Origin: Oscillospiraceae bacterium
GTDB taxonomy: Bacteria > Bacillota > Clostridia > Oscillospirales > UBA929
NCBI GenBank assembly: GCA_031258665.1
Contig: JAIRML010000288.1
Location: 1 to 28,340, forward strand
Direction: 5' to 3'
Length of the DNA: 28,340 bases
Shown: piece by piece, positions 5,433-24,754 of the stretch
How the letters are laid out: every line of letters starts with the position of its first letter
Position numbering within the stretch: the first letter of the stretch is position 1
Made by a program: the position numbers and the translations under genes
Notes under the pieces: generated by a model
What the model saw: only the letters and a program-made list of their open reading frames with translations
Told to the model about the DNA's origin: nothing
Databases searched by the model: none

Positions 5433-5541
5433 AGAATTTTGGGCTGCGGGCCGCGGGCGCAGCCCGCGCTAGCACCCTGTTGCCGCGAAGCGGCAGCAAA
5501 AAACAAGAATCTGGGTTGTGGGCTGCGGATGCGGCCCGCGC
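5433..5541 (+). repeat. REP-like two-hairpin element, locus A (about 1.5 tandem units)
   Basis: TGTTGCCGC-GAA-GCGGCAGCA, AAAAACAAGAATCT, GGGTTGT GGGCTGC-GGAT-GCGGCCC, preceded by a partial unit. Confidence 0.85.
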
Positions 5542-5582
5542 TGGATATGATATAATTTTTTGGCATTTGATCGAACAAGTAC

Positions 5583-5611
5583 TGGACAAAGAGAACGACT
5601 TGTGGTAATAT
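5583..5611 (+). promoter_or_regulatory. Candidate sigma-A promoter upstream of the surface-protein gene
   Basis: TGGACA-17 bp-TAATAT with a TG extension. A second TGnTATAAT lies at 5548-5556. Confidence 0.45.
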
Positions 5612-5620
5612 TACACTATG

Positions 5621-5691
5621 GTGGGTTGCCCCTGCAACCCACAACCCAAACTCTTGTTTTTCGTTGCCGCGAAGCGGCAGCAAGGTACTAG
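5621..5691 (-). repeat. REP-like two-hairpin element, locus B
   Basis: Reverse complement reads TTGCTGCCGC-TTC-GCGGCAACG AAAAACAAGAGTTT GGGTTGT GGGTTGC-AGGG-GCAACCC AC. Confidence 0.88.
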
Positions 5692-5794
5692 AGGGCTGGC
5701 GGCACAATGGGTACCGTCAGGCGGGCTGTATGGCCGTCGGAAATGTGGTGAGGGTACCCACGCCGTATCCTCCAGGGTGGGAAGGACGAGGAAG

Positions 5795-7722
5795 ATGAAG
5801 ACAAGAAGGATCGCGTGGACGCTCTGCGCGCTCATGGCGTTGGCCTTATGTGCCTCTGTGGGCGCGGGGGCGTACGCTTTGCCCGAGCCGAGAGAACCAT
5901 ACCCCCCCACAGATCTAAACAAGGTGGACGGCTCGGCGGCGGTCATCGACCTGGAGGCGGAGGTCTATACCGACGCCACACTGGGCGAAATCGTGATCTT
6001 CAAGGCGGCCGACCCCGGCAAGTGGGCCACTTTGAAGGTGGACGCCGTCCAGCCGGGCGAGTCTTTTGTGGTCACTTTTCGGTACAAAAACACCATAGAA
6101 GTGGCCGGCCGGCCGTTGCGCCTTTCCCCGCATCTCTCCGCCCTGTCGCCGGACACCGGCGCGCGCCGCGCGGTGGACAAGCTCACCTTCCGGGTCTACA
6201 CCCAATTGTTTAGCGCCGGCTACTTGGAGGCGCCGGGGAACACGGAGAGCGATTGTTTCCGGACCGAGCAGGGCGACGCCAAGAGTGTGCGGGAGATTGA
6301 GGCGCCGCTGCCGTCCGGTGTGCCGCCGATCCAGAGGCGGCAGACCGAGCTCGACTGGGTGAGCCATCTGTCGCGGGACCGCACGGTGTCACTCGACACG
6401 ATCCAGCCGGGGGATGTCCTCTACATCCACTATTGGTTCTATTGGGACGGTTCTTTGGGCGCGGTCGCGCCCGAGAGGCCGGGTGACGACCCGCTTCAAA
6501 ATGTCAACATCGACCCGGCCACCGGCCGGCATCGGCGGGACTGCGCCGACGCGGCGTGTACGCACGACAACCACTACATGGGCCTCCCGTTCAGCCTGGA
6601 GTGGAAGCTCTACGCCACATACGCAACGTCCCCGTCCCCGGTGGGCTATACGCTGAGACATCAGGACGCATCGGGCACGACGCTGGCGCCCGACGCGGTC
6701 ACACAGGCCGCGGCCTCGACGAAGTACGCGGGGGACAGATGGGAACCGTCCCCCCTCGCGGATCTTGTCGTTGAGGGCGTAACGTACCAGTACCTGGGCT
6801 ACAAAGTGTCGCCTTCCGGTGCACTGACGGGGGGGGCGCCCACCCGTCTGCTGACCGGCGACGCGTCGGAGAATGTCCTCATATTGGTGTATGAGCCGCG
6901 ACCGGCAACGCCGTCCGCGGTGAGCTATACGCTGAAGTATCAAAATGCCGGCGGCGCGACGCTGGCGGCCGACGCGGTCACGTCGGCCGCGGCCTCGACG
7001 AAGTACGCGGGGGAGACATGGACCGTGTCGCTCCCCATCGCGGATCTTGTCTTTGAGGGCGCCGTGTACCGGTACGTGGGCTACAAAGCGCCGCCTTCCG
7101 GTTTATTGACGACGGAGGGAGCGCCCTTCCGTGTGCTGACCGGTGACGCGTCGGAGAATGTCCTCATATTGATATACGAGCTGGTCGAGGAGTCAACGCC
7201 GACGCCGACGCCGGGCGGGGGGTCGAGGCCGAATCCGACGCAGACGGTCGCGCCCGCATCCGGTATCAGGACGAGCTGGGCGCCACCATCAGGCCGGACA
7301 GAACGCTGGCGGCCCGCAACGAGGACACCTGGTTTGAGTACTCCTTCGATGAGAGCGCCGACGCCATCGACGGCTACGCCTTCATCGAGTACAGGCCGTA
7401 CCCGCCGCGCATCCAGCTGCGGCGAGGCAACGCCAACGCCATCACGCTGATCTATCGCGTGGTGCCGGGGCAGCCGGGGGAGAATGTGCCCGATACGCCG
7501 CCGCCGCTGGAGCCGCCGGACCCGTTCGGTGACCCCGGCGAGGACATCGGCGATACGCCGCCGCCGCTCGGGCCGCCGACCAAGCCGGATGTGCCCTACA
7601 CAGGGGGCTTTGACCTCACCGACCTGTTCTTTGTCGGCGTGTTCCTGCTGGTGTTGGGGCTGCTCTATTACCGGGGCGAGAAAAAGCGGAGACAAAAACA
7701 GTCCGCGGCGCCCGCGCCGTAA
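5795..7722 (+). pseudogene. Sortase-type cell-surface protein with MucBP-like repeats, interrupted by one frameshift (real, phase-variable or sequencing error)
   Basis: Signal peptide MKTRRIAWTLCALMALALCASVGAGAYA. The first frame stops at 7450. The -1 frame is open from 7147 to 7722 and encodes a third repeat-like domain (RIRYQDELG...LIY), Pro-rich repeats, VPYTG, a hydrophobic helix and a KKRRQK tail. Confidence 0.8.
6641..7180 (+). repeat. Tandem duplication of a ~93-aa domain (period about 279 bp)
   Basis: Copies start at 6641 and 6920 and share long identical stretches, e.g. GGCCGCGGCCTCGACGAAGTACGCGGGGGA and GACGCGTCGGAGAATGTCCTCATATTG. Confidence 0.9.
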
Positions 7723-7750
7723 GGCCGGCGCCCGCCCGGCTCCGCGCTTT

Positions 7751-7821
7751 GGTATTTTATTGCCGCTTCGCGGCAATAAAATACAAGAATTTGGGTTGTG
7801 GGTTGCAGACGCAACCCGCGC
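7751..7821 (+). repeat. REP-like two-hairpin element, locus C
   Basis: Perfect 15-bp stem GTATTTTATTGCCGC-TTC-GCGGCAATAAAATAC, then AAGAATTT GGGTTGT GGGTTGC-AGAC-GCAACCC. Confidence 0.88.
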
Positions 7822-7885
7822 TTAGACAAGATTTTATGCTTTTGCGGCATTCTCGTTTTGCGTGTGGAAGAAAGAAGAAAGAGAC

Positions 7886-7918
7886 AAAAAACCACGACGG
7901 ATTCCGCCGTGGTTTTTT
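7886..7918. terminator. Probable bidirectional intrinsic terminator
   Basis: A6-CCACG(A)CGG-ATT-CCG(C)CGTGG-T6. Confidence 0.7.
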
Positions 7919-7945
7919 GCGTGGGCGGCGTTTTTGATTTTTTTG

Positions 7946-7974
7946 TTGTCCCGCGCGCCGTGGGCTGATATAAT
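7946..7974 (+). promoter_or_regulatory. Sigma-A promoter for prmA
   Basis: TTGTCC-17 bp-TATAAT with an extended -10 TG. Confidence 0.65.
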
Positions 7975-8081
7975 AAATGGACGCCTCTGACCGGCGGAAG
8001 ATGTGCAAAAGACCGCGGGGCAGAGCGCTGAGCGCTGTGCCCCGGTGTCGCCCCGGCGGCGGGCGGGACAGGGGGGAGATT

Positions 8082-9044
8082 GTGGAGTGGCTGTCGGTGG
8101 AAATCGATACGGCGCATGAGGGCGTGGACGCGGTGTGCGCCGGGCTGTCCGTGTGGGGGGTAGAGACCCTCGCGATTCAGGACGAGGCCGAGTTTCGCGC
8201 TTTTTTTGAGACGGACCGCCGGGCGTGGGAGCTGGTGGACGACGCCCTGTGCCGCCGCCTGGAGGGTGTCTGCCGCGTGGGGTTCTACCTGCCGGCGGAC
8301 GAAGACGGGCGGCGCACGCTGGCGCGTGTGCGCGCGGGTCTGGGCGCGCTGCGGGCGGGCAGCCCCGGGGCGGATCTGGGCACGCTGGCGCTGCGGGTGG
8401 AGACCGTGCGCGACGAGGACTGGGCCGAGAGCTGGAAGCAATTCTACAGGCCCTTGCCCGTCGGCCGCCGCCTGCTGATCCAACCGGCCTGGGAACCCGT
8501 CGCGGACCCGGAGGGCCGGGCGGTGTTCCTCAACAACCCCGGCATGAGCTTCGGCACGGGCGAACACGAGACCACGTTTTTGTGTCTGGAGGCGCTGGAG
8601 CGGCGGGTGCGGGGCGGAGAACACCTGCTGGACCTCGGCTGCGGTAGCGGTATCCTGGCCATCTGCGCGCTCTTGCTGGGGGCCGCGCGGGCCGACGCGG
8701 TCGACATCGACCCCCACGCGGTGCGGACGGCGCGCGAAAACGCCGCGCGCAACGGCCTGACGGCGCCCCGGTTTCGGGCCTCGGTCGGTGACCCGCTGGC
8801 GGGGACAGCGCCGCTCGCGCCGCCTTACGACCTGGTGACGGCCAATATTGTGGCGGATGTGGTGATCGCGCTGTGCCCGCGCGTGTCCGCGTGGGTCCGC
8901 GCCGGCGGCCTGTTTGTGGTCTCGGGGGTCATTGGGGCGCGGCTGGCGGAGGTGCGCGCGGCGCTCCAAGGCGCCGGCTTTGCCCTGGACGCGGCGCACG
9001 CGCTGCGCGACTGGCACTGCCTGACCGCCCGCAAGACGCCTTGA
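8082..9044 (+). CDS. prmA: Ribosomal protein L11 methyltransferase
   Basis: GTG start after GGGGGAG. Motifs DEDWAESWKQFY, PGMSFGTGEHETT, SAM-binding LDLGCGSGILAI, DIDP.AV and ANIVAD. Confidence 0.95.
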   Translation: MEWLSVEIDTAHEGVDAVCAGLSVWGVETLAIQDEAEFRAFFETDRRAWELVDDALCRRLEGVCRVGFYLPADEDGRRTLARVRAGLGALRAGSPGADLGTLALRVETVRDEDWAESWKQFYRPLPVGRRLLIQPAWEPVADPEGRAVFLNNPGMSFGTGEHETTFLCLEALERRVRGGEHLLDLGCGSGILAICALLLGAARADAVDIDPHAVRTARENAARNGLTAPRFRASVGDPLAGTAPLAPPYDLVTANIVADVVIALCPRVSAWVRAGGLFVVSGVIGARLAEVRAALQGAGFALDAAHALRDWHCLTARKTP

Positions 9045-9133
9045 GAGGCGCCCCTGTATCGGGAAAAGCTCCGGCGCGGGCGCCGGGCACGAGTTTTTGG
9101 AGGCGCCGGGAAGAGAACAGGAGGGAAAACGCC

Positions 9134-9451: not shown

Positions 9452-9463
9452 AGGGCGCGCCTT

Positions 9464-9492
9464 TTGACATTTGCACCGACCTGTGTCATAAT
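9464..9492 (+). promoter_or_regulatory. Sigma-A promoter for thrS
   Basis: TTGACA-17 bp-CATAAT with an extended -10 TG. Confidence 0.8.
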
Positions 9493-9525
9493 ACAAACAG
9501 AGACGCGGCGCGAGGGGCCCGTCAC

Positions 9526-9674
9526 GCTTTGGCACATTGCGGCCGCTTCGCGGCAGCAAGAAAACGAGAATGTGGGCCCTGGGCTGCGGGTGCGGCCCAC
9601 ATGGGCGCCTTGCGGCCGCTTCGCGGCGGCGGAAAAACGAAAATTTGAGTTGTGGGCTGCGGGTGCGGCCCACA
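9526..9674 (+). repeat. REP-like two-hairpin element, locus D (two tandem units, period 73 bp)
   Basis: TTGCGGCCGCTTCGCGGC at 9537 and 9610, each followed by an A-rich spacer and GGGCTGC-GGGT-GCGGCCC ACA. Confidence 0.85.
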
Positions 9675-9693
9675 TTGAGAAAGGGTGGGACAT

Positions 9694-11442
9694 ATGGCGG
9701 AATTTCCCCTGTCCACATTGCGGCACAGCGCATCCCATATTTTGGCGCAGGCGGTGCTTCGCCTGCATCCGGGCGCGAAGCTGGCCATCGGCCCCGCCAT
9801 CGAACATGGGTTTTACTACGACTTTGACGTAGAAAAACCCTTTGCCGCCGAGGAGCTGGAGGCGTTGGAAAAAGAGATGAAGCGCATTGTCCGCGAGCGC
9901 TACCGCGTCGAGAGTTTCACGCTGCCGCGCGCGGAGGCGTTGGCGCTCATGGAGAACCAGCCCTACAAGCAGGAGATGATCCGTGAGCTGCCGCCGCAGG
10001 AGCCCATTCGGTTTTACAAACAGGGGGAATTCACCGACCTGTGCGCCGGCCCCCATGTCGACCACACCGGGCGGGTGAAGGCCTTCAAGCTCCTCTCCGC
10101 GACCGGGGCTTACTGGCGGGGCGACAGCAGCCGGAAGATGCTCTGCCGGATTTATGGCACGGCCTTTGACAACAAAGAAGATCTGGAGCGTCGCCTGACG
10201 GCGTTGGAGGAGGCCAAAAAGCGGGACCACAACCGCCTCGGGCGCGAGCTTGAGTTCTTTACCACTGTCGATTACATCGGGCAAGGCCTGCCGATCCTTA
10301 TGCCGAAGGGCGCGCGCGTCATCCAGATCCTGCAGCGCTTTGTCGAGGACGAGGAGCAGCGGCGCGGGTACCTGCTGACCAAGACGCCCCTGTTTGCCAA
10401 ACGCGAACTCTATCAGATCTCCGGCCATTGGGACCACTACCGAGACGGCATGTTCATCATGGGTCCGGAGGACGACGAGGAGGCCGATGTCTTTGCCCTG
10501 CGGCCGATGACCTGTCCGTTTCAGTTCATGGTCTATCTCTCCCGCACGCGTTCGTACCGGGACTTGCCGATGCGCCTGAACGAGACCTCGACGCTGTTTC
10601 GCAACGAGGCCTCCGGCGAGATGCATGGGCTCATCCGGGTGCGGCAGTTCACGATCTCGGAGGGGCACATCGCCTGTACGCCGGAACAGCTCGAAGAGGA
10701 GTTCAAAGACTGCCTCGACCTCGCCGCCTTCATGCTGAGGGCCGTGGGGCTGGACGACGATGTCTCCTACCGCTTCTCCAAGTGGGATGAAAACAACCGG
10801 GAGAAGTACATCGGCTCGCCCGAACAGTGGAACGATGTGCAGGGCCGCATGCGCGGCATCTTGAACCACATGGAGATCGCCTACGAGGAGGCGGACGGCG
10901 AGGCGGCGTTTTACGGCCCGAAGCTGGACATTCAGATCCGCAACGTCCACGGCAAGGAGGACACGCTGATCACGATCCAGATCGACTTTCAGCTCGCGGA
11001 GCGCTTCGGCATGGAATACACCGACAGAGACGGTGTGAAGCGGCACCCCTACGTGCTGCACCGCACCTCCATCGGCTGCTATGAGCGGACGCTGGCGCTG
11101 CTGATCGAAAAATACGCGGGCGCGCTGCCGCTGTGGCTTGCGCCGACGCAAGTGGCTGTCCTGCCCATCACCGAGCGGCAGCACGACTACGCGCACGGGC
11201 TGTGCAATAGGCTCCGCGCGGCGGGTTACCGCGTGGAACTGGACGAGCGCAACGAGAAGATCGGCTTTAAGATCCGCGAGGCGCAAGTGCAGAAAGTGCC
11301 CTATATGCTCGTCGTGGGCGACAAGGAGACCGAGGCGGGGCAGGTGTCGGTGCGTGACCGGCGCCAGGGCGATCTCGGCGCCATGTCGCCGGACGACTTT
11401 GAGGCGCGGCTGGCCGGCGAGGTGGCGCGGCGGGTGCTGTGA
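9694..11442 (+). CDS. thrS: Threonine--tRNA ligase (short form, apparently lacking the N-terminal TGS domain)
   Basis: RHSASHILAQAV, GFYYDF, DLCAGPH, RDHNRLG, LRPMTCP, RVRQFTISEGH, FYGPKLD and HRTSIG motifs, plus a C-terminal anticodon-binding domain. Confidence 0.98.
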   Translation: MAEFPLSTLRHSASHILAQAVLRLHPGAKLAIGPAIEHGFYYDFDVEKPFAAEELEALEKEMKRIVRERYRVESFTLPRAEALALMENQPYKQEMIRELPPQEPIRFYKQGEFTDLCAGPHVDHTGRVKAFKLLSATGAYWRGDSSRKMLCRIYGTAFDNKEDLERRLTALEEAKKRDHNRLGRELEFFTTVDYIGQGLPILMPKGARVIQILQRFVEDEEQRRGYLLTKTPLFAKRELYQISGHWDHYRDGMFIMGPEDDEEADVFALRPMTCPFQFMVYLSRTRSYRDLPMRLNETSTLFRNEASGEMHGLIRVRQFTISEGHIACTPEQLEEEFKDCLDLAAFMLRAVGLDDDVSYRFSKWDENNREKYIGSPEQWNDVQGRMRGILNHMEIAYEEADGEAAFYGPKLDIQIRNVHGKEDTLITIQIDFQLAERFGMEYTDRDGVKRHPYVLHRTSIGCYERTLALLIEKYAGALPLWLAPTQVAVLPITERQHDYAHGLCNRLRAAGYRVELDERNEKIGFKIREAQVQKVPYMLVVGDKETEAGQVSVRDRRQGDLGAMSPDDFEARLAGEVARRVL

Positions 11443-11665: not shown

Positions 11666-12568
11666 GTGAGAGATCTGATCATTGTGGGCGGCGGCCCGGC
11701 GGGGCTGACCGCCGCCATTTACGCCGCGCGTGCCGGTCTGTCCGTCACCGTGGTGGAGAGGGGCTTTGCGGGCGGGCAGATGGCCGCCACAACCGACATC
11801 GTCAACTACCCCGGCTTCGAGACCATCGACGGCGCGGAGCTCGCCCGGCGCATGGAGGTCCACGCGCGCGGGCTGGGCGCCGAGGTGCTGACAGGGGAGG
11901 TGCGGGCGCTGTGGCTGAAGCCGGGTGCGCTGACTGTCGTGACCGAATCGGAGCTGCCGGCCCGCACGCTGATCCTCGCGATGGGTACGCGGCGGCGCAA
12001 GCTGGCGGTCCCCGGGGAGGAACGGCTGACCGGGCGGGGTGTCTCTTACTGCGCCATATGCGACGGCGCTTTCTTCAAGGACCGGGATGTGGCGGTGGTT
12101 GGCGGCGGCGACACGGCGCTGGCAGACGCCGCCTATCTGGCCGGCGTCTGCCGGCGGGTGACGCTGGTACACCGGCGTGACGCGTTCCGCGGCGGCCGGC
12201 GCCTTGAGGAGATCCTGCGCCGGCTGCCGAATGTGACGCTCCGGCTCGGGCAGGTGGTCGAGGAGATCTTGGGGGACAAGGCCGTGCAGGCGATCCGGGC
12301 GCGGGATGTGAAGACGCAGGCGGCGGAGGCGCTGCCGGTGTCGGCCGTCTTTGTGGCGGTGGGCGTCGTGCCGGACACCGCGCTGCTGCGCGGGTCGCTG
12401 CCGCTGGATGCGGAGGGGCGGGTGGAGGCGCCCGAGGATGGGAGCACCCAGGTTCCCGGCGTGTTTGTGGCCGGCGACCTGCGGCAAAAACCCATCTATC
12501 AAATCGTAACCGCCTGTGCCGACGGAGCCATGGCCGCCACGGCGGCGGCGCGGTTCTTGCGGGGGTAG
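11666..12568 (+). CDS. trxB: Thioredoxin-disulfide reductase
   Basis: GTG start after GGAGG. FAD motif IIVGGGPAGLTAAIY, redox centre GVSYCAICDG, NADPH motif VVGGGDTA..HRRD, and GVFVAGD. Confidence 0.95.
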   Translation: MRDLIIVGGGPAGLTAAIYAARAGLSVTVVERGFAGGQMAATTDIVNYPGFETIDGAELARRMEVHARGLGAEVLTGEVRALWLKPGALTVVTESELPARTLILAMGTRRRKLAVPGEERLTGRGVSYCAICDGAFFKDRDVAVVGGGDTALADAAYLAGVCRRVTLVHRRDAFRGGRRLEEILRRLPNVTLRLGQVVEEILGDKAVQAIRARDVKTQAAEALPVSAVFVAVGVVPDTALLRGSLPLDAEGRVEAPEDGSTQVPGVFVAGDLRQKPIYQIVTACADGAMAATAAARFLRG

Positions 12569-12740
12569 GGAGATTTTATACGGCGGGCGACGCCCGCCGC
12601 GCCTGGGAGCCATGGCCGCCACGGCGGCATCGCGGTTCTTGCGGGGGGAGGGGGAGTTTATACGGCGGGCGACGCCCGCCGCGCCTGGAGGAGCCATGGC
12701 CGCCACGGCGGCATCGCGGTTCTTGCGGGGGTAGGGAGAG
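12524..12740 (+). repeat. Tandem triplication of the trxB 3' end (period 82-84 bp)
   Basis: GGAGCCATGGCCGCCACGGCGGC..CGCGGTTCTTGCGGGGG starts at 12524, 12606 and 12690. The third copy is partial. Confidence 0.92.
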
Positions 12741-12744
12741 AGAT

Positions 12745-13896
12745 ATGCTGATTTACCATGCCGAGCTGCACACGATGGACGGCGCTGTTTTGGCGGGGGG
12801 GTGGGTGCGCACGGAGGGCGCGCGCATCCATTCGGTGGGTCCCCCGGAGACGTGCCCCGCCGCGGGCCCGGACGACATAGACGCCGCCGGCGCGGTGGTG
12901 ACACCCGGCTTCATTGACGCCCACTGTCACATCGGTGTCTTTGAGGACGCCGTGGGGGAGATGGGCGAGGACGGCAACGAGGCCTCCGACCCCGTCACGC
13001 CGCATATGCGGGGGCTCGACGCCGTCAACCCGCGGGACCGCTGTTTCGCCGACGCGCGCCGCGCCGGCGTCACCACCGTGGTCACCGGGCCGGGCAGCGC
13101 CAACCCGGTGGGCGGACAGATGGCCGCGCTGAAGACAGACGGCCGCCGCGTGGACGACATGGTCCTGCGCGCGCCCGCGGCCATGAAGTTTGCCATGGGG
13201 GAGAACCCAAAGCGCACGTACGCCGGACGGAAGGCCGCCCCCTTTACGCGCATGGGGACGGCGGCGCTCATCCGCGAGGCGCTTTTTCAGGCGCGCGCCT
13301 ACGGGGCGCGCAAGGAGAAGGCGGCGCGGAGCGGCGGCGACCCGCCGGACTACCATATGAAGTGGGAGAGCCTGCTGCCCGTGCTCGCGGGCGCGATGCC
13401 GGCCCATATCCACGCCCACCGCGCCGACGACATCTTTACGGCGCTGCGCATCGCGCGGGAGTTTGCGCTGGACGCCGTCATCATCCACGGCACGGACGCG
13501 GCCTCGGTGGCCGACCTGTTGGCGGCGGAGCGCGTGCCCGTTGTCGCCGGGCCGCTGCTTGTCGACCGTTCGAAGCCGGAGCTCGGGAGTCTGTCGTTTG
13601 CGCTGCCGGCCGCGCTGTACCGGGCCGGCGTTCCGGCCGCGCTGTGCACCGACGCGCCGGTCGTCCCCCCGGAGTACCTCCCGCTGTGCGCGGGCCTCGC
13701 GGCCAAGGCGGGCCTGCCGGCGGAGGAGGCGCTGCGCGCCGTCACCGCCGCCGCCGCCGCCATCGCCCGGCTCGACCACCGCGTGGGCCGGCTGCGTCCG
13801 GGCCTGGACGCGGACATTGTCATCTGGCGCGGCCCCCCGCTGTCGCTGGAGGCCGCCCCCGCGGCCGTGTTTCTCTCGGGCCGGCGGGCCCGGTGA
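12745..13896 (+). CDS. Metal-dependent amidohydrolase (imidazolonepropionase-like family)
   Basis: VTPGFIDAHCHIG metal-binding motif, K in MKFAMGENPK, HAHRADDI, IHG, TDAP and G.L..GLDADIVIW. Confidence 0.88.
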   Translation: MLIYHAELHTMDGAVLAGGWVRTEGARIHSVGPPETCPAAGPDDIDAAGAVVTPGFIDAHCHIGVFEDAVGEMGEDGNEASDPVTPHMRGLDAVNPRDRCFADARRAGVTTVVTGPGSANPVGGQMAALKTDGRRVDDMVLRAPAAMKFAMGENPKRTYAGRKAAPFTRMGTAALIREALFQARAYGARKEKAARSGGDPPDYHMKWESLLPVLAGAMPAHIHAHRADDIFTALRIAREFALDAVIIHGTDAASVADLLAAERVPVVAGPLLVDRSKPELGSLSFALPAALYRAGVPAALCTDAPVVPPEYLPLCAGLAAKAGLPAEEALRAVTAAAAAIARLDHRVGRLRPGLDADIVIWRGPPLSLEAAPAAVFLSGRRAR

Positions 13897-13935: not shown

Positions 13936-14005
13936 GGGGGAGAGGAGACCGGGCTGGGCGCCGGTTGTCTTACAGATACATCCCGGTTGGAAGGAGATGT
14001 TCGAA

Positions 14006-14542
14006 TTGAGAGTCCAATTTACCGACAAAAAGGTGGAGGTGTCCGACGCGCTGCGTGAGTACGCGGAAAAAAAACTGACCAAGCTGGACCGCTACTTCAA
14101 ACACGACGCCGAGGCGCGTGTGGTGTTTGCCGTGGAGCGGGGCCGCCACCAGGTGGAGATCACCGTCTCCCACAGCGGGACGGTGTACAGGGCCTCCGAG
14201 TCCACCAACGATATGTATGCGGCCATCGACAGCGCCGTGGCCTATATCGAGCGGCAGATTCACAAGTTCAAGACAAAGCTCGAAAAGCGGCTGCGCCAGG
14301 GCGCGTTTGAGCGCGAGGTGCCCACCGCCATGGCCGACCCGACGGTGGATGAGGAGTACGAGTTCAACATCATCCGCGTGAAGAGATTTGCCTTCAAGCC
14401 GATGACGCCGGAGGAGGCGATTCTCCAGATGAACCTCTTGAATCACGAGTTCTTCGCGTTTCGCAACTTTGAAAACGGGGGCGTTTTCGCCGTGGTCTAC
14501 AGGCGCAACGACGGCGGATACGGCCTGATCGAGGAACACTGA
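14006..14542 (+). CDS. hpf: Ribosome hibernation promoting factor, long form
   Basis: TTG start 9 nt after AAGGAG (the ATG at 13997 abuts the RBS). LREYAEKKL.KL, DMYAAIDSAV..IERQI.K.K, and C-terminal KPMTPEEAILQMNLLNHEFF..F.N and VVY.R.DG.YGLIE. Confidence 0.95.
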   Translation: MRVQFTDKKVEVSDALREYAEKKLTKLDRYFKHDAEARVVFAVERGRHQVEITVSHSGTVYRASESTNDMYAAIDSAVAYIERQIHKFKTKLEKRLRQGAFEREVPTAMADPTVDEEYEFNIIRVKRFAFKPMTPEEAILQMNLLNHEFFAFRNFENGGVFAVVYRRNDGGYGLIEEH

Positions 14543-14610
14543 TGTGGGTTACCTGCAACCCACAACCCAGATTCCTGTTTTTTATTGCCGCGAAGCGGCA
14601 ATAGGGTACT
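14543..14610 (-). repeat. REP-like two-hairpin element, locus E
   Basis: Starts 1 nt after the hpf stop. Reverse complement reads GTACCC TATTGCCGC-TTC-GCGGCAATA AAAAACAGGAATCT GGGTTGT GGGTTGCAGGTAACCC ACA. Confidence 0.88.
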
Positions 14611-14625
14611 GACGGGTACACAGCG

Positions 14626-14730: not shown

Positions 14731-14773
14731 AAAACGGCAGCAACATTGAGAAGAGAAAGGAAGTGCTTTGTTT

Positions 14774-17700
14774 ATGACTGCCAAAAAACGGACGATGGCT
14801 GTGCTTGTCGCGCTTGTCATGGCGTTGGGGGTGTTGCCGTCGCTGCCCGTCTCCGGTTTGGAGGCGGCTGCCGGGCCTCTCACAGAAAACACCAACACAC
14901 ACTGGCTGTTGTATTCTCCGAAGGCCCAGTCGTATGTACAGCATCTCACAAACGCCGGGTACGGCGCCAATCCCGGCGGGGTCGTCGCCACGCAGGACGA
15001 CCCGTCCGACCCGGCCGCCCAATGGACGCTCACCAACTACAACTCCGGCTCGATACCGGCCGCCGCCGGCATGTTCCGTATGGTGACCGCCGAAACCGCC
15101 AACGGGCACAACGCCGGCCTGGCGTTTAAAATGTTCGACGGCGCCGTGTATGTCGAAGGCGGGACAAACGGCGACGCCGACGGATTCTATCCGACGCCCG
15201 GACCCGCGGCCGACACTGTCATCATTCGCGGCGGGGGCAACGGCGGCATCGTGTACCCGATGAACGCCAACGCGCAGGGGTTGACCGTGAACGACGCGAA
15301 CATTCTCCGCCGCTCGGCCAGCAGCCCCGACGCCTTCATCCTCATCCCGCCGCAGGGGTACGTCCCGGTTCCGCCGGTTCCGTCGTCCCTCACCACACCG
15401 GACGGCAGTTCCGTTGCGGTCCAGTGGCCGAACCCCACCACATATTCGTCTAAACTGATTCTCCAGCGGGCCACCGACGAAGCGTTTTCAGACGCGGTCG
15501 CCGTGGATCTCAGCGGCGCGGCGCAGCAAGCCGGATATGTCACGCGGCTTGTCGATGCGTCGCCCAAGACGCATGGGACCACCTATTACTACAGGTTCAT
15601 CGCCGAGGATTACTGGCACAAAGGTGAAAACGGCGTAGTCGGCGAGAGCGCGGACATCACGATGCCCTCGACATTGCCGCCGACCATACAGACGACGGCG
15701 CTGACGTTTTTCAAATACCCCGCCCCGAAAGACCAGACCATCGGCTTTGACCCTGGCTTCGGCGCGCCCGAAGGCGCGACGGGCGTCGCGTCCGTCAGTT
15801 TCGACGGCGGAGCGAGTCTCGCCGTTGGCAGCGATTACACGGTCGATTGGGCCGGCAAGACGGTCACCGTCAAAGCGGCCGCGTTGAGCCGTTTGGCGCA
15901 GGGTGAACACGCGATCGACGTCAGGTTTGACCGGGAGGCCGGCGTGGCGTCGTTTGCCGTCAGCCTCCATGTGACGGACAAGATCACACACCCGTCTCAC
16001 TGGTTGATTTTTTCGCCGGACGCGGGCGCGCTTGTCGGTGTCAGGCAGAGCAATCCCTGGCAGGCGAACCCGCAGGGCTCGCTGTCGGCGACATATCTTT
16101 CGGCCGATCATGTGAACGCGCAGTGGTCCATCGACCGCAACGTGGCGGCCGCCTATACCGGCACGTACCCGTTCCGCATCCAATCTATGCTGACCACACC
16201 CACGCCGGCGCAGAGAAATATGTCTATGTACGCCGACTCTTGGGCCGCCTGGGAACAGGCCGGAACGATCAACCAGGCCACCGCCATGGCGATTGTCCCG
16301 CAGGGCGACGGTACTGTCAAGATTCACGGCGCGTGGAATAACCCGGGTTGGGCGGCGGTAAACGCCGACGGCACAACGCGCACTTTGGCGCAGGCCGCGT
16401 CGTCGAATTTCATTGTCATTCCGCCGGACAGTTACACGCCGGGCGACGCCGTCGGCGGGGCGGTCACCAGCGAAACCGCCGCGGACGTCACGTTCACGTG
16501 GCAGGCCCCGGCAGGGCCCGCGCCGAACTATTTTGCCGGGTTCCGCGTATTCAGACAGGACGGCGCGCAGTGGATTGAACTGACGGGCGACGGCAGCCTT
16601 GTCGTCAGAGAAGGCGGCGGCGTGTACTCGTTTACCGACGACTCGCCCGTGGACAATGTCAGCGTGTATAAAGTCGTGACGGACACCGCCAACCACGATT
16701 CGGACGGGATGCTGCTCACCGCCAACATCCCCGGGGGGGAACCCCCGAGTGTGGGCGCGTCCATCGCGACGTTCAACAAAAAGATCCCGGAGAGCGTGGT
16801 CATCGGCGTCAAGCTGGGCTTCGGCTCGCTGAGGGCCTCCCAGGTCGCGTCTCTGCTTCTCGACGGCATCCCTGTCGCCTATACGCTGAGCGGCGGCAAG
16901 TCCCCCGCCGTGACCCTTGACGCCGCCGCGCTCTCCGCTTTGGCGCTGACAAACGGCGACGCGCACAGCATCGCGGTTGCGTTCAACGACGCCGCGGAAA
17001 CGGTAAAAACCGTGACGCTCAACGTCATTGACGCCGAGAGCGCCTTGCCCGCCCCCGCGAACGTCAGAGTGACCGGCGACGGCAATGGCGCGGCGATCTC
17101 ATGGGATGCCGTGCCGAACGCAACCGGCTACAAAATCTACCGCGGGCTCGGCAAGTACGCGCCCGCCACATTCACCGCGCTCGTCGACGCCACCGACGAA
17201 ACGGGGTACAATCTCGGGGCCAGCTATGTGTGGGATTGGTACAAAGTAACCGCGTACAACGGCGCCGGCGATTATATCGATAGCCCGCCGTCGGACGTGG
17301 CCTCACTCGAGATCACGATGTTCCCAAACACCGAAATCTTCACCGAGAACGACGCGCAAAATACGGTGTCGACGGTCACCAATAACCATTCGAAGGCGTT
17401 CTTCTGGGGTGGGGCCATAGGCGGGAATTCCCCGTCCGGCGCGGACGCCAACAACCAATTCACAGACGACCGCATCGCGCTCCTGTTCAGGCCCGCCAAG
17501 GGTCACACGGCGGACTTCACGTACTTGGGGCTGTACCTCAACTTTTATATGCACATTGCCGGGCTTGGCAAAGTGCCGACCGACGTGCAGACGCAATCGG
17601 TTCAGGTATATTCTTGGGAGGGCGGCAGTTACAATGGCGGCGGCAACGTCACACAAAACTTCTGGCGCACGTTTGAAAATATGGAGACCACAGCCGGAGG

Positions 17701-19594
17701 CAATGTGTTCGCCGTCTCACAGGCGTCCCCTGTCCGCCGGGTTAAGACGGGCGCGCTTACGTTCCAGCTCGGCGGTTCGGCGAGCGGCGGGTTCCTTGCC
17801 GACAGTTACACAGGCTGGCAGTCCTATCAGGGGCAGCAGCAGTTTTATACCCGCAACAACGCGATAGCGGGCACGGACGGCCTGATCTGGAACGGTGTCA
17901 TGCAGGGCAACACGACCCAGGACGGGACCCAGTGGAACCAGTCCTACTCATGGATTGTCGTCGATGTGGAGCACACGCCGCTCATAGCGGAGAAGCCCTT
18001 CCTCTACTTTGACGTGGACGCGAACGGCGGCACCGGCGACTACCGAGTATTCGTACCCGGTTACCGCAAAGACGCTGTCGGCCTTTCGTGGGGCGACGGC
18101 AAGGCAAATGGGGGCATGGGCCCCGGCGAAAGCAGGCCGCTGAGCGATTTCTTTGTGGCGGACGAGTCCATGAGCGCCGACCAAATTATCGCCGGGATGC
18201 AAACGAAGAACGGCAACATCTTCTTCACCCCAGGCGTATACAAACTTGACAAAGAGATCCGCGTCACCGAGCCAAACGCCGTGCTGCTCGGGATCGGCGA
18301 GGCCTCGCTCCGCCCGCTGAGCGGGAATGTCTGCGTAAAAGTCGCGGATGTGCCCGGTGTGCGTGTCGCCGGACTTCTGTTCGACGCCGGCCCCGCCGCC
18401 GAGAATGACTTGGCCAACGCCAGCGAGGCGCTGCTTGTGGTCGGAGAAGGCGGCTTCACCGCCACGCCGGAGATGGAAGCGAGCCCGATTGTGCTTTCCG
18501 ACGCGATCGTGCGCGTTGGCGGGCTTCCGACGAGCGTACCCTATAAAGCGAAGAACGGCATTGTCATAAACGCCGATTACACGATTCTTGATCACGCCTG
18601 GATCTGGCGCGCCGACCACGGCGACCAGGTCGGATGGACGCTCAACCAGACAGACAACGGCCTTGTCGTCAACGGCGATCATGTGATTACATACGGGTTG
18701 CACTCCGAACACTTCCAGAAATATGACGTCCTCTGGAACGGCGATGACGGGCGCTGCTTCTATCTGCAAAATGAGCGCCCGTATGACACGCCGGAAACCG
18801 ACGACGTGCCCGACGCCTGGCGCGACACGTCGCTCGCGGACGCCAAGTATGATTACATCGGCCCGCTGGCCGACAGGCAGCAAGGGTACGCCGCTTTCCG
18901 CATCGGCGACGATGTGAGAAACTTCGAGGGCTGGGGTCTTGTGTCTTATGACGTGTTCGTACAGAACATGGGCGTCCAGTTCCGCACCATTTGGACAGGC
19001 TTCATAGCGCCGGAAAAGAACGCCAACATCAAGATCCATCAAGTGGGGACACTCTCAATCTCGCAGAACAGGGGTGAGATCGCCCACATCATCAATGGCG
19101 AGGGCCCGAGCAACGTTGGCCCCGTTGGGCCGACAAAATTTCTCGCGGCAAACGAGTTCCACCCCGACAATGAATACTGGTCGAAATGGCCGCTCTCCGC
19201 CGACGCGCTTGTGATCGGAGGTGCTGATGTCTATGACGATGCCGTTGGCCTGTATGTACTGAATTTGGGTGAGACTGAGCGGACGGCGAACGCCATTCTC
19301 GGCGGATACGAAACAGGCGGGAGGCTGACCGACGCAAACGTCGACCGGATAACCGTCAAGGGCTCCATCCTTGTTGGCGGCGGCGTCGGCGGCAATTCGG
19401 AGATTGTCGGCGGAGAGGCCCGCGGTCCGCAGCCGTTTATATCTAAAGATACCACCGTGGGTTCGCGGCTGTCCGGCGGGAGGTATGCCCTGCCCCGGCC
19501 GGGCGGCGAGAGTGCCGACGTCTGCGCCGCGTATGTCTGGAGCAGTGAAACCCATACGCCGCTTGCGGAGCGCCTCATCATTCCGCTGGATTAG
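14774..19594 (+). CDS. Secreted multimodular GH55 beta-1,3-glucanase (laminarinase)
   Basis: Signal peptide MTAKKRTMAVLVALVMALGVL (an alternative TTG start is at 14768). About 17320-19180 matches recalled bacterial GH55 motifs: NVTQNFWR, AVSQAS, SGGFLADS, QQQFYTRN, EKPFLY, FTPGVY, DHAWIWRADHG, EHFQKY, QNERPYD. The N-terminal half has duplicated accessory modules. Confidence 0.85.
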   Translation: MTAKKRTMAVLVALVMALGVLPSLPVSGLEAAAGPLTENTNTHWLLYSPKAQSYVQHLTNAGYGANPGGVVATQDDPSDPAAQWTLTNYNSGSIPAAAGMFRMVTAETANGHNAGLAFKMFDGAVYVEGGTNGDADGFYPTPGPAADTVIIRGGGNGGIVYPMNANAQGLTVNDANILRRSASSPDAFILIPPQGYVPVPPVPSSLTTPDGSSVAVQWPNPTTYSSKLILQRATDEAFSDAVAVDLSGAAQQAGYVTRLVDASPKTHGTTYYYRFIAEDYWHKGENGVVGESADITMPSTLPPTIQTTALTFFKYPAPKDQTIGFDPGFGAPEGATGVASVSFDGGASLAVGSDYTVDWAGKTVTVKAAALSRLAQGEHAIDVRFDREAGVASFAVSLHVTDKITHPSHWLIFSPDAGALVGVRQSNPWQANPQGSLSATYLSADHVNAQWSIDRNVAAAYTGTYPFRIQSMLTTPTPAQRNMSMYADSWAAWEQAGTINQATAMAIVPQGDGTVKIHGAWNNPGWAAVNADGTTRTLAQAASSNFIVIPPDSYTPGDAVGGAVTSETAADVTFTWQAPAGPAPNYFAGFRVFRQDGAQWIELTGDGSLVVREGGGVYSFTDDSPVDNVSVYKVVTDTANHDSDGMLLTANIPGGEPPSVGASIATFNKKIPESVVIGVKLGFGSLRASQVASLLLDGIPVAYTLSGGKSPAVTLDAAALSALALTNGDAHSIAVAFNDAAETVKTVTLNVIDAESALPAPANVRVTGDGNGAAISWDAVPNATGYKIYRGLGKYAPATFTALVDATDETGYNLGASYVWDWYKVTAYNGAGDYIDSPPSDVASLEITMFPNTEIFTENDAQNTVSTVTNNHSKAFFWGGAIGGNSPSGADANNQFTDDRIALLFRPAKGHTADFTYLGLYLNFYMHIAGLGKVPTDVQTQSVQVYSWEGGSYNGGGNVTQNFWRTFENMETTAGGNVFAVSQASPVRRVKTGALTFQLGGSASGGFLADSYTGWQSYQGQQQFYTRNNAIAGTDGLIWNGVMQGNTTQDGTQWNQSYSWIVVDVEHTPLIAEKPFLYFDVDANGGTGDYRVFVPGYRKDAVGLSWGDGKANGGMGPGESRPLSDFFVADESMSADQIIAGMQTKNGNIFFTPGVYKLDKEIRVTEPNAVLLGIGEASLRPLSGNVCVKVADVPGVRVAGLLFDAGPAAENDLANASEALLVVGEGGFTATPEMEASPIVLSDAIVRVGGLPTSVPYKAKNGIVINADYTILDHAWIWRADHGDQVGWTLNQTDNGLVVNGDHVITYGLHSEHFQKYDVLWNGDDGRCFYLQNERPYDTPETDDVPDAWRDTSLADAKYDYIGPLADRQQGYAAFRIGDDVRNFEGWGLVSYDVFVQNMGVQFRTIWTGFIAPEKNANIKIHQVGTLSISQNRGEIAHIINGEGPSNVGPVGPTKFLAANEFHPDNEYWSKWPLSADALVIGGADVYDDAVGLYVLNLGETERTANAILGGYETGGRLTDANVDRITVKGSILVGGGVGGNSEIVGGEARGPQPFISKDTTVGSRLSGGRYALPRPGGESADVCAAYVWSSETHTPLAERLIIPLD

Positions 19595-19595
19595 C

Positions 19596-19696
19596 TTTTT
19601 GCTGCCGCGAAGCGGCGGCAAAAAAGAAGAATTTGGGTTATGGGTTGCAGGCGCAACCCGCGTTGGTACCCTGTTGCCGCGAAGCGTCAACAAGGT
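19596..19696 (+). repeat. REP-like two-hairpin element, locus F (about 1.4 tandem units)
   Basis: TTTTTGCTGCCGC-GAA-GCGGCGGCAAAAA, GAAGAATTT GGGTTAT GGGTTGC-AGGC-GCAACCC GCGTTGGTACCC, then TGTTGCCGC-GAA-GCGTCAACA. Confidence 0.88.
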
Positions 19697-19726
19697 GTTA
19701 TCGATTTGTGGAAGGGGGCCTTGTGG

Positions 19727-21007: not shown

Positions 21008-21023
21008 TCACAACGAAGGGGGC

Positions 21024-21051: not shown

Positions 21052-21089
21052 CGGTCCTCCGCAATGCGGCTGGCGGCCTGCCGATAGGG

Positions 21090-21968: not shown

Positions 21969-21971
21969 GGC

Positions 21972-22817
21972 GTGACAGACAAGATGAAAACGAGATTTCC
22001 CCTGGGCAGAGGCATCATTTTGGCCGTGCTCTTATTGTTCTCGGTGATCCAGCTTTTCCCGCTGGTATGGCTTATCGATTTCTCCCTCGCCAGCAATACA
22101 GAGTTCTTCACGTCGAAGCTGCTTATCATGCCCAAAGAAATCCAATGGGGGAATTATCCAAGGGCATTTATTGATGGGCATTTTTTGCTGTATTTAAAAA
22201 ACAGCCTGCTTGTCAATACGCTCGCGGTTGTCGTCGTGCTGGTCCTCTCAATCTGTTCGGCATACGCCGTCACAAGAATGCGCTGGAAGTTTTCACAAGC
22301 CGCCAAAAGCGTCATACTGTTGGGCATGATGATCCCGATTCACGCGACGCTTATCCCCAATTACATGATATACGACTTCCTCGGAGTCCGTGACACGCTG
22401 TGGTCGCTTCTTCTGCCTTACGTGGCCTTTTCGCTGCCGCAGGGGCTTTTTCTTGCGGCAAGTTATATGGAGTCCGTTTCGAAAGAAATAGAGGAAGCCG
22501 CCATCATCGACGGCTGCGGGACCTTTCGCCTTCTGGGCAGCATTATCACGCCGATGATGAAATCGTCGCTTATAACCGTCATGATCATGACTTACTTGAA
22601 CAACTGGAATGAGTTTATGATGGCCAGCACATACCTGAGCACATCAAAATGGAAGACACTCCCATTTTCCATCTTGGAATTCACGGGGCAGTACCGCGCG
22701 AATGTGGCGGTGCAATTTGCCGTTATGACGCTCACCGCAGCGCCGGCTATCATCATATATATTATATTGAGCAAACATATAACAAAGGGTGTGGCCATGG
22801 GTGCTGTAAAGGGATAA
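21972..22817 (+). CDS. Carbohydrate ABC transporter permease (MalG-like)
   Basis: LKNSL, AYAVTR, IPIHATLIP, EAA loop IEEAAIIDG, NNWNEF and terminal KG...GAVKG. Confidence 0.93.
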   Translation: MTDKMKTRFPLGRGIILAVLLLFSVIQLFPLVWLIDFSLASNTEFFTSKLLIMPKEIQWGNYPRAFIDGHFLLYLKNSLLVNTLAVVVVLVLSICSAYAVTRMRWKFSQAAKSVILLGMMIPIHATLIPNYMIYDFLGVRDTLWSLLLPYVAFSLPQGLFLAASYMESVSKEIEEAAIIDGCGTFRLLGSIITPMMKSSLITVMIMTYLNNWNEFMMASTYLSTSKWKTLPFSILEFTGQYRANVAVQFAVMTLTAAPAIIIYIILSKHITKGVAMGAVKG

Positions 22818-22853
22818 AAGTCCTCGTTCATTATATTTTTACAGTAAAATCAT
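22814..22853 (+). promoter_or_regulatory. 40-bp conserved box, copy 1 (upstream of the kinase-regulator-GH30 unit)
   Basis: ATAAAAGTCCTCGTTCATTATATTTTTACAGTAAAATCAT. 37/40 identical to 26901-26940 and contains a TAAAAT -10-like hexamer. Confidence 0.7.
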
Positions 22854-22876
22854 GATAGCGGTCGGGGCGGTTTTCT

Positions 22877-24754
22877 ATGTGTGGAATGAAGAGGAATGAG
22901 CATACGGGGATGAGGATAGGGCACAAGATAGTCCTGAGTATCTATGCCGTTCTTCTGCCGACGTTTCTTATCGTAGAAAGCATCATTTACTGGAACAGCC
23001 ATTCCGCCGTCATCAGTGAACGCACGCGGCAGTATAAGCGCGCCGTTTCGTCCATCGACGAAAACATTGGATACCTGGAGCAGGACATGTTGGAAATCGC
23101 GACCTATCTCTCCATCAATTATGAAATACAGAGGGTTCTGATGTCCGACCCTGAAGAGACCGCGGAAGATCCCCTCTTTTGGTCAAACAAAACGCCGGTC
23201 AATGTCATAAAAGACATATTGGCCGTAAAAACGAAGATTGCGACGGTCGCGCTTTATCCAGAAAACGGGCTCAGGCCTTTTACCATAAGCCGCGACAGGA
23301 GTGTTTTCGCCCCCAATATCGCCAATCTTCGGGGGCTGGACATTTATAAGAGAGCCGCAGCAGGGAACGGCGTCATCGTTTGGAGCCGGGTAAACAGCGA
23401 TGATATTGGGCTTTTTATCAACAACCGTTCAGACAAAATCGTCGCCTGCAGTGAACTGTATGATTTGTCTAAGAGACGCAAACTGGGCTTTCTGTCACTC
23501 GGCATTGATTTGGAGGGATACGAAAGCATATGCGCGAACGCCATGCCTCAGAACAACGAGGCTGTCCTTATCTTCGACTCCGACGGCAGCGAGATGTTCC
23601 GATACGGCGACGTGCCGGACGAAGCCGCCGCGTGGCTCAGGGAGCGTGATCCAAACGTCACGGATGAGCCGTTGGAATACGAGAAATACTACATATTTTC
23701 TCAGCGCCGTGAGACATCGGGTCAGACGATCTTTTATCTGTCCAGAAAAAGCGACTGGGACGCGTGGACAAGAAGCGGGTTCCTGATCACATGCCTGTCG
23801 GCACTTGCTCTTTTGGGAGGGGTATGGCCGCTGTCCTCGTTCGCCTCACGGATCGTTACCCGGCCGATTATGCTGCTCTACGCCTCCATGAATAAGTTTA
23901 AGAGCGGCGATTTCAACCAGCAGGTACATGTCGAGGGAAATGATGAAATTTCTGAGCTGGCCGAAACATTTAATACCATGGTGAGCGATATCCGCGAGCA
24001 AATCGACAAGAATTATGTGTTGGCTTTGAGAGAGAAGCAGAGCGAACTGAATGCGCTCCAAGCGCAGATCAATCCGCATTTCCTCTACAACGCGCTGGAC
24101 GCGCTTTACTGGCAAGCGACGGAATGCTGTCAAGAGCGGCTTGCGGACGATATATTGGCGATGTCGGAATTGTTCCGTATGCTGCTCTCCAACGGCAACA
24201 GCGAGGTTACGGTGGAACAGGAACTGAAAATTGTGCGCCACTATCTGCAAATTCAAAAATTACGTTTTGACAAAAAAATGAACTACAGCATTGAGGTGGA
24301 GAACGAACTGCTTCCATACCAGATCCCAAAGCTGATTATCCAGCCATTTGTAGAGAACGCCATTGTCCATGGGATGGAAAAGAATGGAACGTGGGGCCGC
24401 ATTCGAATCACCGGCCGCATAGACGGCGACTTCCTCTCGTTCACCGTCGAAGACAGCGGGATCGGCATGTCAAATGAGAGAATTCAGGAGATCTTAAAGG
24501 CAAAGGACGACGACCGGTACGCCTACCAAAGGGTGGGACATTACGCTGTCAGAAATGTGAAGGAGCGCATGAATCTGCGCTACGGCGCTGCGGCGGAACT
24601 CACCATCGAGAGCGAGCTGAATATCGGCACAAAAGTTCAGATCAAATTGCCACTGATAGTGCCTTGTTGCCGCGAAGCGGCAGCAAAAAACAAGAATTTG
24701 GGTTGTGGGTTGCAGGGGCAGCCCACGTGGGAACGAAATGAGGCGGGGCTATGA
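22877..24754 (+). CDS. YesM-like sensor histidine kinase (HAMP + His_kinase + HATPase)
   Basis: Two TM segments, HAMP (DEISELAETFNTM), LQAQINPHFLYNAL, QPFVENAIVHG, VEDSGIGM and GTKVQIKLP. Start uncertain (22877, 22886 or 22910). Confidence 0.93.
   Translation: MCGMKRNEHTGMRIGHKIVLSIYAVLLPTFLIVESIIYWNSHSAVISERTRQYKRAVSSIDENIGYLEQDMLEIATYLSINYEIQRVLMSDPEETAEDPLFWSNKTPVNVIKDILAVKTKIATVALYPENGLRPFTISRDRSVFAPNIANLRGLDIYKRAAAGNGVIVWSRVNSDDIGLFINNRSDKIVACSELYDLSKRRKLGFLSLGIDLEGYESICANAMPQNNEAVLIFDSDGSEMFRYGDVPDEAAAWLRERDPNVTDEPLEYEKYYIFSQRRETSGQTIFYLSRKSDWDAWTRSGFLITCLSALALLGGVWPLSSFASRIVTRPIMLLYASMNKFKSGDFNQQVHVEGNDEISELAETFNTMVSDIREQIDKNYVLALREKQSELNALQAQINPHFLYNALDALYWQATECCQERLADDILAMSELFRMLLSNGNSEVTVEQELKIVRHYLQIQKLRFDKKMNYSIEVENELLPYQIPKLIIQPFVENAIVHGMEKNGTWGRIRITGRIDGDFLSFTVEDSGIGMSNERIQEILKAKDDDRYAYQRVGHYAVRNVKERMNLRYGAAAELTIESELNIGTKVQIKLPLIVPCCREAAAKNKNLGCGLQGQPTWERNEAGL
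24659..24728 (+). repeat. REP-like two-hairpin element, locus G (inside the kinase reading frame)
   Basis: GTGCC TTGTTGCCGC-GAA-GCGGCAGCAA AAAACAAGAATTT GGGTTGT GGGTTGC-AGGG-GCAGCCC AC, upstream of the kinase stop at 24752-24754. Confidence 0.9.

Follow-up and report, generated by a model that had tools for sequence, protein, structure and literature searches.

We describe a dispersed repeat of 72-75 nt, built around two hairpins, that recurs through a 28,340-nucleotide stretch of DNA from an uncultured termite-gut Firmicute of the Oscillospiraceae (GenBank assembly GCA_031258665.1, contig JAIRML010000288.1; the whole of this stretch is referred to here as the window). The repeat is mobile, being precisely present or absent at dozens of orthologous sites in related genomes, and we hold with high confidence that it is a mobile miniature element inserting by the target rule set out below. 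It is a non-autonomous DNA transposon whose insertions, made without target duplication, lie directly 3' of a tetranucleotide that is most often TTAG or ATAG. Rather more guardedly, we favour a fuller account in which a Y1 HUH tyrosine transposase, whether a TnpA of the IS200 type or an enzyme like the RAYTs, would move the copies in trans. We infer the involvement of such an enzyme from the match between the element and the IS200/IS605 family, namely hairpin ends, a target motif on the left, a similar motif on the right, scarless, peel-and-paste movement of a single strand and the existence of miniature derivatives (palindrome-associated transposable elements, PATEs). An earlier note on this DNA, made from the sequence alone, had proposed an undescribed clostridial REP/MITE family of two structured modules; the undescribed, mobile, two-module family stands, whereas its placement among the REP/RAYT systems or the classical MITEs is not supported.

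The element is non-coding, carries one hairpin near each end and is typified by the copy at 24657-24729 of the window. Its left end reads TACC and is followed by a 10-bp hairpin with a three-nucleotide loop (GAA or TTC), an A-rich linker (AAAAAACAAGAATTTGGGTT), a second hairpin of 9 bp with a purine-rich loop of four nucleotides, and five terminal bases ending TTGG (TTAG in the congener G002), such that the consensus unit can be written (T/A)TAG-TACC ... CGTTGG. Hairpin 1 begins 4-5 nt from the left end and hairpin 2 stops 5 nt before the right end. The borders are sharp: in an alignment of 182 solitary full copies with 30 nt of flank, the information content drops to zero within one base on each side. 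Terminal inverted repeats are absent from the consensus of these 182 copies, the first 14 bases of which show no match to the reverse complement of the last 14. The stems are kept through compensatory changes, as the earlier note had observed in the window, with 92% (stem 1) and 89% (stem 2) of cells in Watson-Crick pairing and with double switches of pairs (G:C in 147 copies against A:T in 108; T:A in 196 against C:G in 45; C:G in 134 against T:A in 92), and folds of the single-stranded DNA give z-scores of -2.9 to -7.0. The same note had read the right end as a REP-like foot of GTGG or GCGG followed by a palindrome; this reading is not supported. GTGG is part of stem 2, and the signals that mark the ends are instead NTAG to the left of the element and TTGG at its right end.

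Mobility is seen directly when orthologous sites are compared between the source genome bin, G000 (1,615,388 bases in 308 contigs, 62.7% G+C, 64% complete), and its congeners. Contigs of G002 and G005 show synteny with the window over its full length, and G003 over part of it, at about 89% identity. Where both flanks could be mapped in the 831 kb of G002 compared, 45 of 48 G000 loci are unoccupied in G002 and, in the reverse comparison, 7 of 12 G002 copies are unoccupied in G000. The cleanest pairs of filled and empty sites are those at 24657 of the window, at C93:2730, at C183:3400, at C34:1982 and at C211:1393-1599, the last being a copy of a long form described below, together with two sites that are filled in G002 and empty in G000 (C63:72035 and C79:54918). 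The insert in these clean pairs measures 72-73 nt, or about 207 nt for the long form, no target-site duplication accompanies it, and the tetranucleotide to the left of TACC (ATAG, ACAG, TTTG or TTGG-like) already exists in the empty allele.

Individual loci illustrate how much this occupancy varies within the genus. The leader of thrS (9464-9693), which precedes the threonyl-tRNA synthetase open reading frame at 9694-11442 (identified with Pfam), consists largely of two tandem copies in G000; G002 has a single copy there, G003 has one that is differently placed and oppositely oriented, and the leader in G005 is free of copies. A further case is the C250 locus, where a first copy is shared and G002 has added another in tandem. 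The copy at 24657-24729 contributes 72 nt, or 24 in-frame codons, nine codons before the stop of a histidine-kinase gene, in which the HAMP, His_kinase and HATPase_c domains (Pfam) end at residue 590 of 622 and the insert falls after HATPase_c. The stop codon of this gene, with the insert in place, still overlaps the start of a gene for an AraC-type response regulator. One further candidate for an empty site, the spacer at 3670-3785, was rejected, the copy that three congeners carry having been lost via a larger deletion rather than cleanly. This spacer is some 300 nt shorter in G000 than in G002, G003 and G005, all of which have there an element copy and, just ahead of the next gene, a structured GC-rich stretch that is conserved among them; G000 is without this stretch and may have lost a leader or a riboswitch-like region. 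The one public sequencing run that contains the window is a termite-gut metagenome, and its contigs, which break and cross-map at repeats, gave no usable polymorphism within the population.

The sites of insertion follow a simple rule. Among the left tetranucleotides of 285 non-tandem copies in G000 are TTAG (82), ATAG (50), TTGG (40), TCAG (19), CTAG (14), ACAG (11) and GTAG (10), with NTAG making up 55%, and TTAG, which represents 0.09% of intergenic tetranucleotides, is enriched more than 300-fold in this position. The corresponding figures in G002 are 15 of 27 for TTAG and 7 of 27 for ATAG. At the right end, TTGG is found in 114 of 182 solo copies. Because the left tetranucleotide is present in the empty allele, the left motif is the target, and the TTGG or TTAG on the right belongs to the element; since both motifs end in G or AG, the cut can be placed 1-2 nt either way. 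The third bases (A or G) of the left and right motifs are uncorrelated, the four classes numbering 93, 35, 26 and 7 copies, and a degenerate target duplication is thereby excluded. Flanking k-mers of 2-8 nt, examined for a duplication at several choices of border, gave a weak excess only, which comes from the G or AG shared by the end motifs. A search for guide-like covariation between the end motifs and the bases 5' of the hairpins showed no more than a weak association of the two end motifs at their second base (mutual information 0.105, against a null maximum of 0.08).

This rule also bears on how the copies are arranged. As the right end of the element resembles the target, an incoming copy can insert just after one that is already in place, giving head-to-tail arrays. 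Exact junctions of this kind number 73 and recur with a period of 70-75 nt; in them the right end of the upstream copy (TTGG in 52, TTAG in 11) is the target of the next. Calls of mixed orientation within such arrays are matches on both strands to single palindromic copies. The TAG of the target is also a stop codon, with the consequence that many copies lie flush with the ends of genes: in 21 cases, or 14% of all genes ending in TAG, the target TAG is the stop codon of the upstream gene.

Repeat finding, alignment and nhmmer recovered all seven loci, with nine first hairpins, at which the earlier note had placed the repeat; they account for repeat families D1, D4, D7 and D8 and for many inverted pairs. 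In total the window holds eight full copies, one right-half fragment and one left-half fragment, and the alignment of these 10 segments has 16 invariant columns. The segments are as follows.

5433-5468, plus strand: 5'-truncated copy with the end of the linker, a variant of hairpin 2 and the right tetranucleotide CTAG (sequence, family D4, alignment).
5469-5544, plus strand: full copy with hairpin-1 loop GAA, the reference copy of D1 (nhmmer, 73.9 bits).
5617-5693, minus strand: full copy in inverse orientation (nhmmer, 78.6 bits; inverted repeats I1, I2 and I4).
7747-7822, plus strand: full copy with loop TTC, at a site that is empty in G002, G003 and G005 (nhmmer, 74.8 bits; empty-site alignments).
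9527-9602 and 9600-9677, plus strand: two head-to-tail full copies within the thrS leader (nhmmer, 66.9 and 65.3 bits; D7; alignment of four genomes).
14540-14614, minus strand: full copy in inverse orientation, starting 2 nt inside the stop codon of the open reading frame 13997-14542 (nhmmer, 68.1 bits; D8; gene model).
19591-19666, plus strand: full copy, the target TAG of which is the stop codon of the 1608-aa open reading frame 14768-19594 (nhmmer, 73.4 bits; list of open reading frames).
19664-19693, plus strand: 3'-truncated copy, comprising the left end and hairpin 1, head-to-tail behind the copy at 19591-19666 (D4; alignment).
24657-24729, plus strand: full copy, in frame in the histidine-kinase gene, with an exact empty site in G002 and G005 (alignment; Pfam).

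The CTAG that ends the fragment at 5433-5468 is the target motif of the copy that follows it at 5469-5544. Two other repeats of the window stand apart from these copies. At 12524-12771, at the end of the open reading frame 11666-12568, a unit of 82-84 nt that is unrelated to the two-hairpin family is repeated in tandem, the second and third of its three copies being 94% and 65% identical to the first; a separate, nearly perfect palindrome of 76 nt lies at 28134-28209 (arms 28134-28171 and 28172-28209), with an inverted partial copy of it at 28304-28340 that runs off the end of the window.

A profile built from the eight full copies was used to search the whole G000 assembly with nhmmer (E<=1e-3, overlaps removed). 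The 897 raw matches, many of them a single palindromic copy matched on both strands, resolve into about 465 non-overlapping copies, of which 313 are full length and 152 partial. These lie on 195 contigs, make up 2.2% of the assembled bases and correspond to about one copy per 3.5 kb. The count is probably an underestimate, given that 54 of the copies are no more than 100 nt away from the end of a contig, and the density of copies probably contributes to the fragmented state of the assembly. This abundance goes far beyond chance; the pattern GCCGC-NNN-GCGGC, too, occurs 409 times against 73 for an arm-swapped control and has GAA or TTC as its loop in 282 of the 409. The profile scan for copy number and empty sites that the earlier note had suggested has thus borne out its core inference, with exact empty sites in congeners in addition to the genomic copies. 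What it had remarked on in the window also holds genome-wide: copies run in either orientation, form head-to-tail tandems, lie between genes and tend to be close to stop codons.

The element is restricted in its distribution. It is present in four of seven genomes of one genus (G000, G002, G003 and G005), with first-look candidate counts of about 366, 88, 85 and 30, and it was not found in 23 further genomes of the family nor in 16 of the order. A scan of one genome per species with the hairpin-1 pattern returned the element only from bins called 'Oscillospiraceae bacterium' with names in the style of termite studies. Matches outside the Oscillospiraceae, in a Nitrincola chromosome and at single sites elsewhere, were rejected as chance, their likeness being confined to the search pattern. 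The matches in the uncultured Nitrincola (L026, L027, L033, L039 and L041) belong to a multi-copy element with a GCCGC-TAC-GCGGC hairpin and an A-run at its start, which encodes a tyrosine integrase and then an IS91-like transposase and which, matching by pattern only, we judge to be unrelated. In Rfam, neither the window nor the tandem arrays nor the long form had a relevant match at E<=1, chance matches to microRNA and sRNA families falling far below their gathering scores, and no match was found in phage searches, plasmid searches, two scans of metagenome contigs or the literature. The comparison with known repeats is consequently in keeping with the novelty suggested in the earlier note, and the family appears to be undescribed. 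Copies are 96% identical to one another in G002 and about 80% identical in G000, and so the bursts differ in age or in the diversity of their source copies.

Within the family two kinds of variation are found. In element orientation the loop of hairpin 1 is GAA in 139 full copies and TTC in 70, its three bases flipping as a block (mutual information 0.8 bits). Small inversions of hairpin loops are a known class of mutation, for example in plastid spacers. Because the flip is independent of the stem subfamilies and differs between G000 and G002 copies at the same site, it either recurs in place or is neutral for movement. In hairpin 2 a flipped loop is very rare, CCCT being found in 4 of about 200, and its orientation therefore seems to be of consequence.

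The second kind of variation is the long form, of about 212 nt and with at least 16 complete copies, which has the ends of the short form and an insert within the linker. The core of this insert is 117 nt in length, with three further hairpins, and has at least 65 matches at a median identity of 98%, 22 of which touch a contig end; Rfam gave no match to it. Among long copies the core is 94% identical pairwise, the end parts only 81% and 74%. It occurs in the linker (for example L046:105-322, equivalent to C265:3254-3471), alone after CAAAAC (C202:1437-1553) and in tandem (C233:1141-1371); in the linker it sits after AAAAC, and it itself ends AAAAC. The core is probably a second small element that inserts after AAAAC, often into the two-hairpin linker, and the long form would arise by insertion or duplication of this separate three-hairpin module, giving a build of end-core(n)-end. 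BOX elements of Streptococcus pneumoniae, which are arranged as boxA-boxB(n)-boxC, likewise combine conserved end modules with a variable internal one, and in our element the internal module is present 0, 1 or 2 times. There is no sequence relation between the two, however; the ends of BOX act like inverted repeats, and the internal module of our element also occurs alone. Pairs of left and right halves lying 0.3-6 kb apart were considered as a possible autonomous parent, but the 16 close pairs are the long form; three wider pairs are 0.65, 3.4 and 5.0 kb apart, and a list of open reading frames was made for one of them.

Of the known systems, it is the PATEs, miniature derivatives of IS200/IS605 described from Haloquadratum and Geobacillus, whose definition fits the anatomy of the element better than that of the REP/RAYT systems does. 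PATEs lack terminal inverted repeats, have near-terminal palindromes, make no target duplication and are too short to code (PMC3119063), and the element agrees with this point by point, whereas it differs from classical MITEs in having neither terminal inverted repeats nor a target-site duplication. PATEs vary in size by deletion between short direct repeats and have other small repeats nested in them (PMC3119063); our element, too, comes in more than one size, short direct repeats linking the variants, and harbours other small elements. TnpA excises a single strand, leaving a scarless donor joint, and inserts it without duplication downstream of a transposon-adjacent motif, a related motif lying inside the right end of the transposon (PMC10055086). 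The fixed target motif to the left of our element and the related motif in its right end match this scheme. In density the element departs from the PATEs, being much more frequent at one copy per 3.5 kb.

In favour of a Y1 enzyme, one or more Y1 genes are present in each of the element-bearing congeners that were searched. At L017:56-877, G005 encodes a RAYT above the 80-bit cut-off (85.1 bits) in addition to an IS200 TnpA, and the incomplete G003 encodes a RAYT-like protein of 252 aa that scores 59.8 bits against REP_Tyr_transpos and thus falls below the cut-off. Upstream of the latter gene, between it and its neighbour, at L014:777-930, lies a long perfect inverted repeat with arms of about 20 nt and a 9-nt loop, which is unlike the hairpins of the element. 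As the earlier note had stated, the window itself contains no mobiliser; the search it had suggested for a RAYT or other Y1 HUH gene flanked by the element was negative, G000 yielding none and the RAYT-like genes of the congeners having no adjoining copy. Since the Y1 genes come without matching ends or adjoining copies, the enzyme is one that we infer and do not observe.

Several findings weigh against the assignment to a Y1 enzyme. In G000, at 64% completeness, there is no match to Pfam Y1_Tnp or NCBIfam REP_Tyr_transpos; in G002, which is 95% complete and has about 90 copies, the one IS200-type TnpA, at L011:1468-1902, is accompanied by unrelated AT-rich hairpins and no RAYT-like gene was found; and G001 encodes an IS200 TnpA and a tnpB, yet no elements were detected in it. 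No copy of the element lies beside the Y1 loci of G001, G002, G003 and G005, and the four element-bearing genomes yielded neither tnpB nor a parental IS200/IS605 transposon with matching ends, the lack of such a parent being a difference from the PATEs. The ends of classical IS200/IS605 elements are hairpins similar to one another, whereas hairpins 1 and 2 of our element are dissimilar, which again sets it apart from the PATEs, as does the lack of any detected strand bias. IS608-type insertion prefers the lagging-strand template, but the orientation of the element relative to the GC skew of the contig is 179:163 (p = 0.42), the skew being a crude proxy on 5-kb contigs and a usable though noisy one, given that it follows gene direction (200 concordant contigs against 108); relative to gene direction, itself a crude proxy here, there is no bias either (138:137). 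Lastly, G:T and A:C mismatches in the stems are about equally common (81:97 and 102:110), and there is thus no sign of selection for the folding of only one strand.

These observations lend themselves to three other readings. A true REP/RAYT system seems to us improbable; on that reading the hairpins would be individual REPs, and a domesticated RAYT, present once and encoded in sequence missing from the assembly, would have multiplied them. Such systems are defined by palindromes headed by GT(A/G)G, by a rayt gene with REPs in inverted orientation on its two sides and by the arrangement of REPs as inverted doublets (PMC2817692). Our element shares with the REP, REPIN and BIME sequences of Proteobacteria its hundreds of extragenic GC-rich palindromes with compensatory changes, their mosaic with other motifs and a presumed HUH-type mobiliser present at most once per genome; RAYT-like genes do occur in G003 and G005, and stem 2 opens with GTGG, much like the head of REPs (PMC2817692). 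That GTGG, however, is base-paired inside stem 2, and hairpin 1 has no such head and is preceded by TACC; no GT(A/G)G head stands outside a stem. What moves is the whole, fixed two-hairpin block of 72-73 nt rather than a single palindrome, its arrays are direct and not inverted doublets, no copies flank the RAYT-like genes found in G003 and G005, and neither G000 nor the 95%-complete G002 has a RAYT that could be found. Alternatively, the element may be mobile by means of a non-Y1 enzyme, through some other single-strand, site-specific or unknown system, with its likeness to IS200/IS605 being convergent. We regard this as unlikely, though it draws on the missing cognate Y1 gene, the dissimilar hairpins, the symmetric stem mismatches and the want of bias with respect to either replication strand or gene strand, and Haloquadratum PATEs appear to move despite disrupted IS200-type transposase genes (PMC3119063). 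A 4-nt target, no duplication and hairpin ends are nevertheless what characterises the Y1 family. The targets recognised by IS110-type elements are much longer, and no tnpB or Y2 (IS91-type) gene was found in the element-bearing genomes, or a Y2 gene anywhere, the Y2 result being uninformative because the model matched no control genome either. The existence of genomes 95-97% complete that carry 30-90 copies without a matching-end transposase, taken with the dissimilar hairpins and the lack of strand bias, makes a non-Y1 mechanism possible, and in the doubtful event that the two-hairpin family and the linker-targeting 117-nt module were both moved without a resident Y1 HUH transposase, this would point to an unrecognised mobiliser of hairpin-ended, duplication-free miniature elements. 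The same question of the mobiliser was left open for the Haloquadratum PATEs.

The third reading, that the family is a non-mobile structural or regulatory repeat (a terminator, an mRNA stabiliser or a protein-binding site) selected by the host and spread by recombination, we consider very unlikely, and as the origin of the family it is largely refuted. It has in its favour that the copies form stable hairpins, are intergenic and often lie near stop codons and ribosome-binding sites, and E. coli REP elements have secondary structural and regulatory roles of this kind. With genes called in G000 by a simple caller based on codon usage (1330 genes, 87% coding), 448 of 465 copies (96%) are intergenic or at contig edges, 17 overlap predicted genes, and 268 of 1022 intergenic regions (26%) are occupied. 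However, occupancy is higher in divergent spacers (45%) than in convergent ones (22%), co-directional spacers standing at 24%, and in the co-directional spacers the element runs with the genes in 138 cases and against them in 137. Such indifference to orientation argues against a role at the RNA level and, together with the frequency of copies in promoter-bearing spacers, indicates that the element is neither a terminator nor another strand-specific RNA signal. No T-run follows either hairpin, so that the rejection of an intrinsic terminator in the earlier note is upheld. The precise presence and absence of copies at dozens of orthologous sites, the copy in frame inside a coding region and the confinement of the family to part of one genus likewise speak against selection by the host as its origin. 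That in-frame copy, at 24657-24729, extends its protein without breaking it, in which it resembles the Rickettsia palindromic elements; it is the exception here, in a family that is otherwise intergenic.

On our preferred account, that of a mobile miniature element with a short fixed target, an uncultured gut Firmicute has undergone a clear burst, specific to its lineage, of a hairpin-ended element that has come to occupy a quarter of its intergenic regions, and the target rule can be read straight from the dozens of exact empty sites in sister species. Given that insertions are found in leaders, between promoters and ribosome-binding sites and, once, in a kinase gene, the family likely shapes gene expression in the genus.

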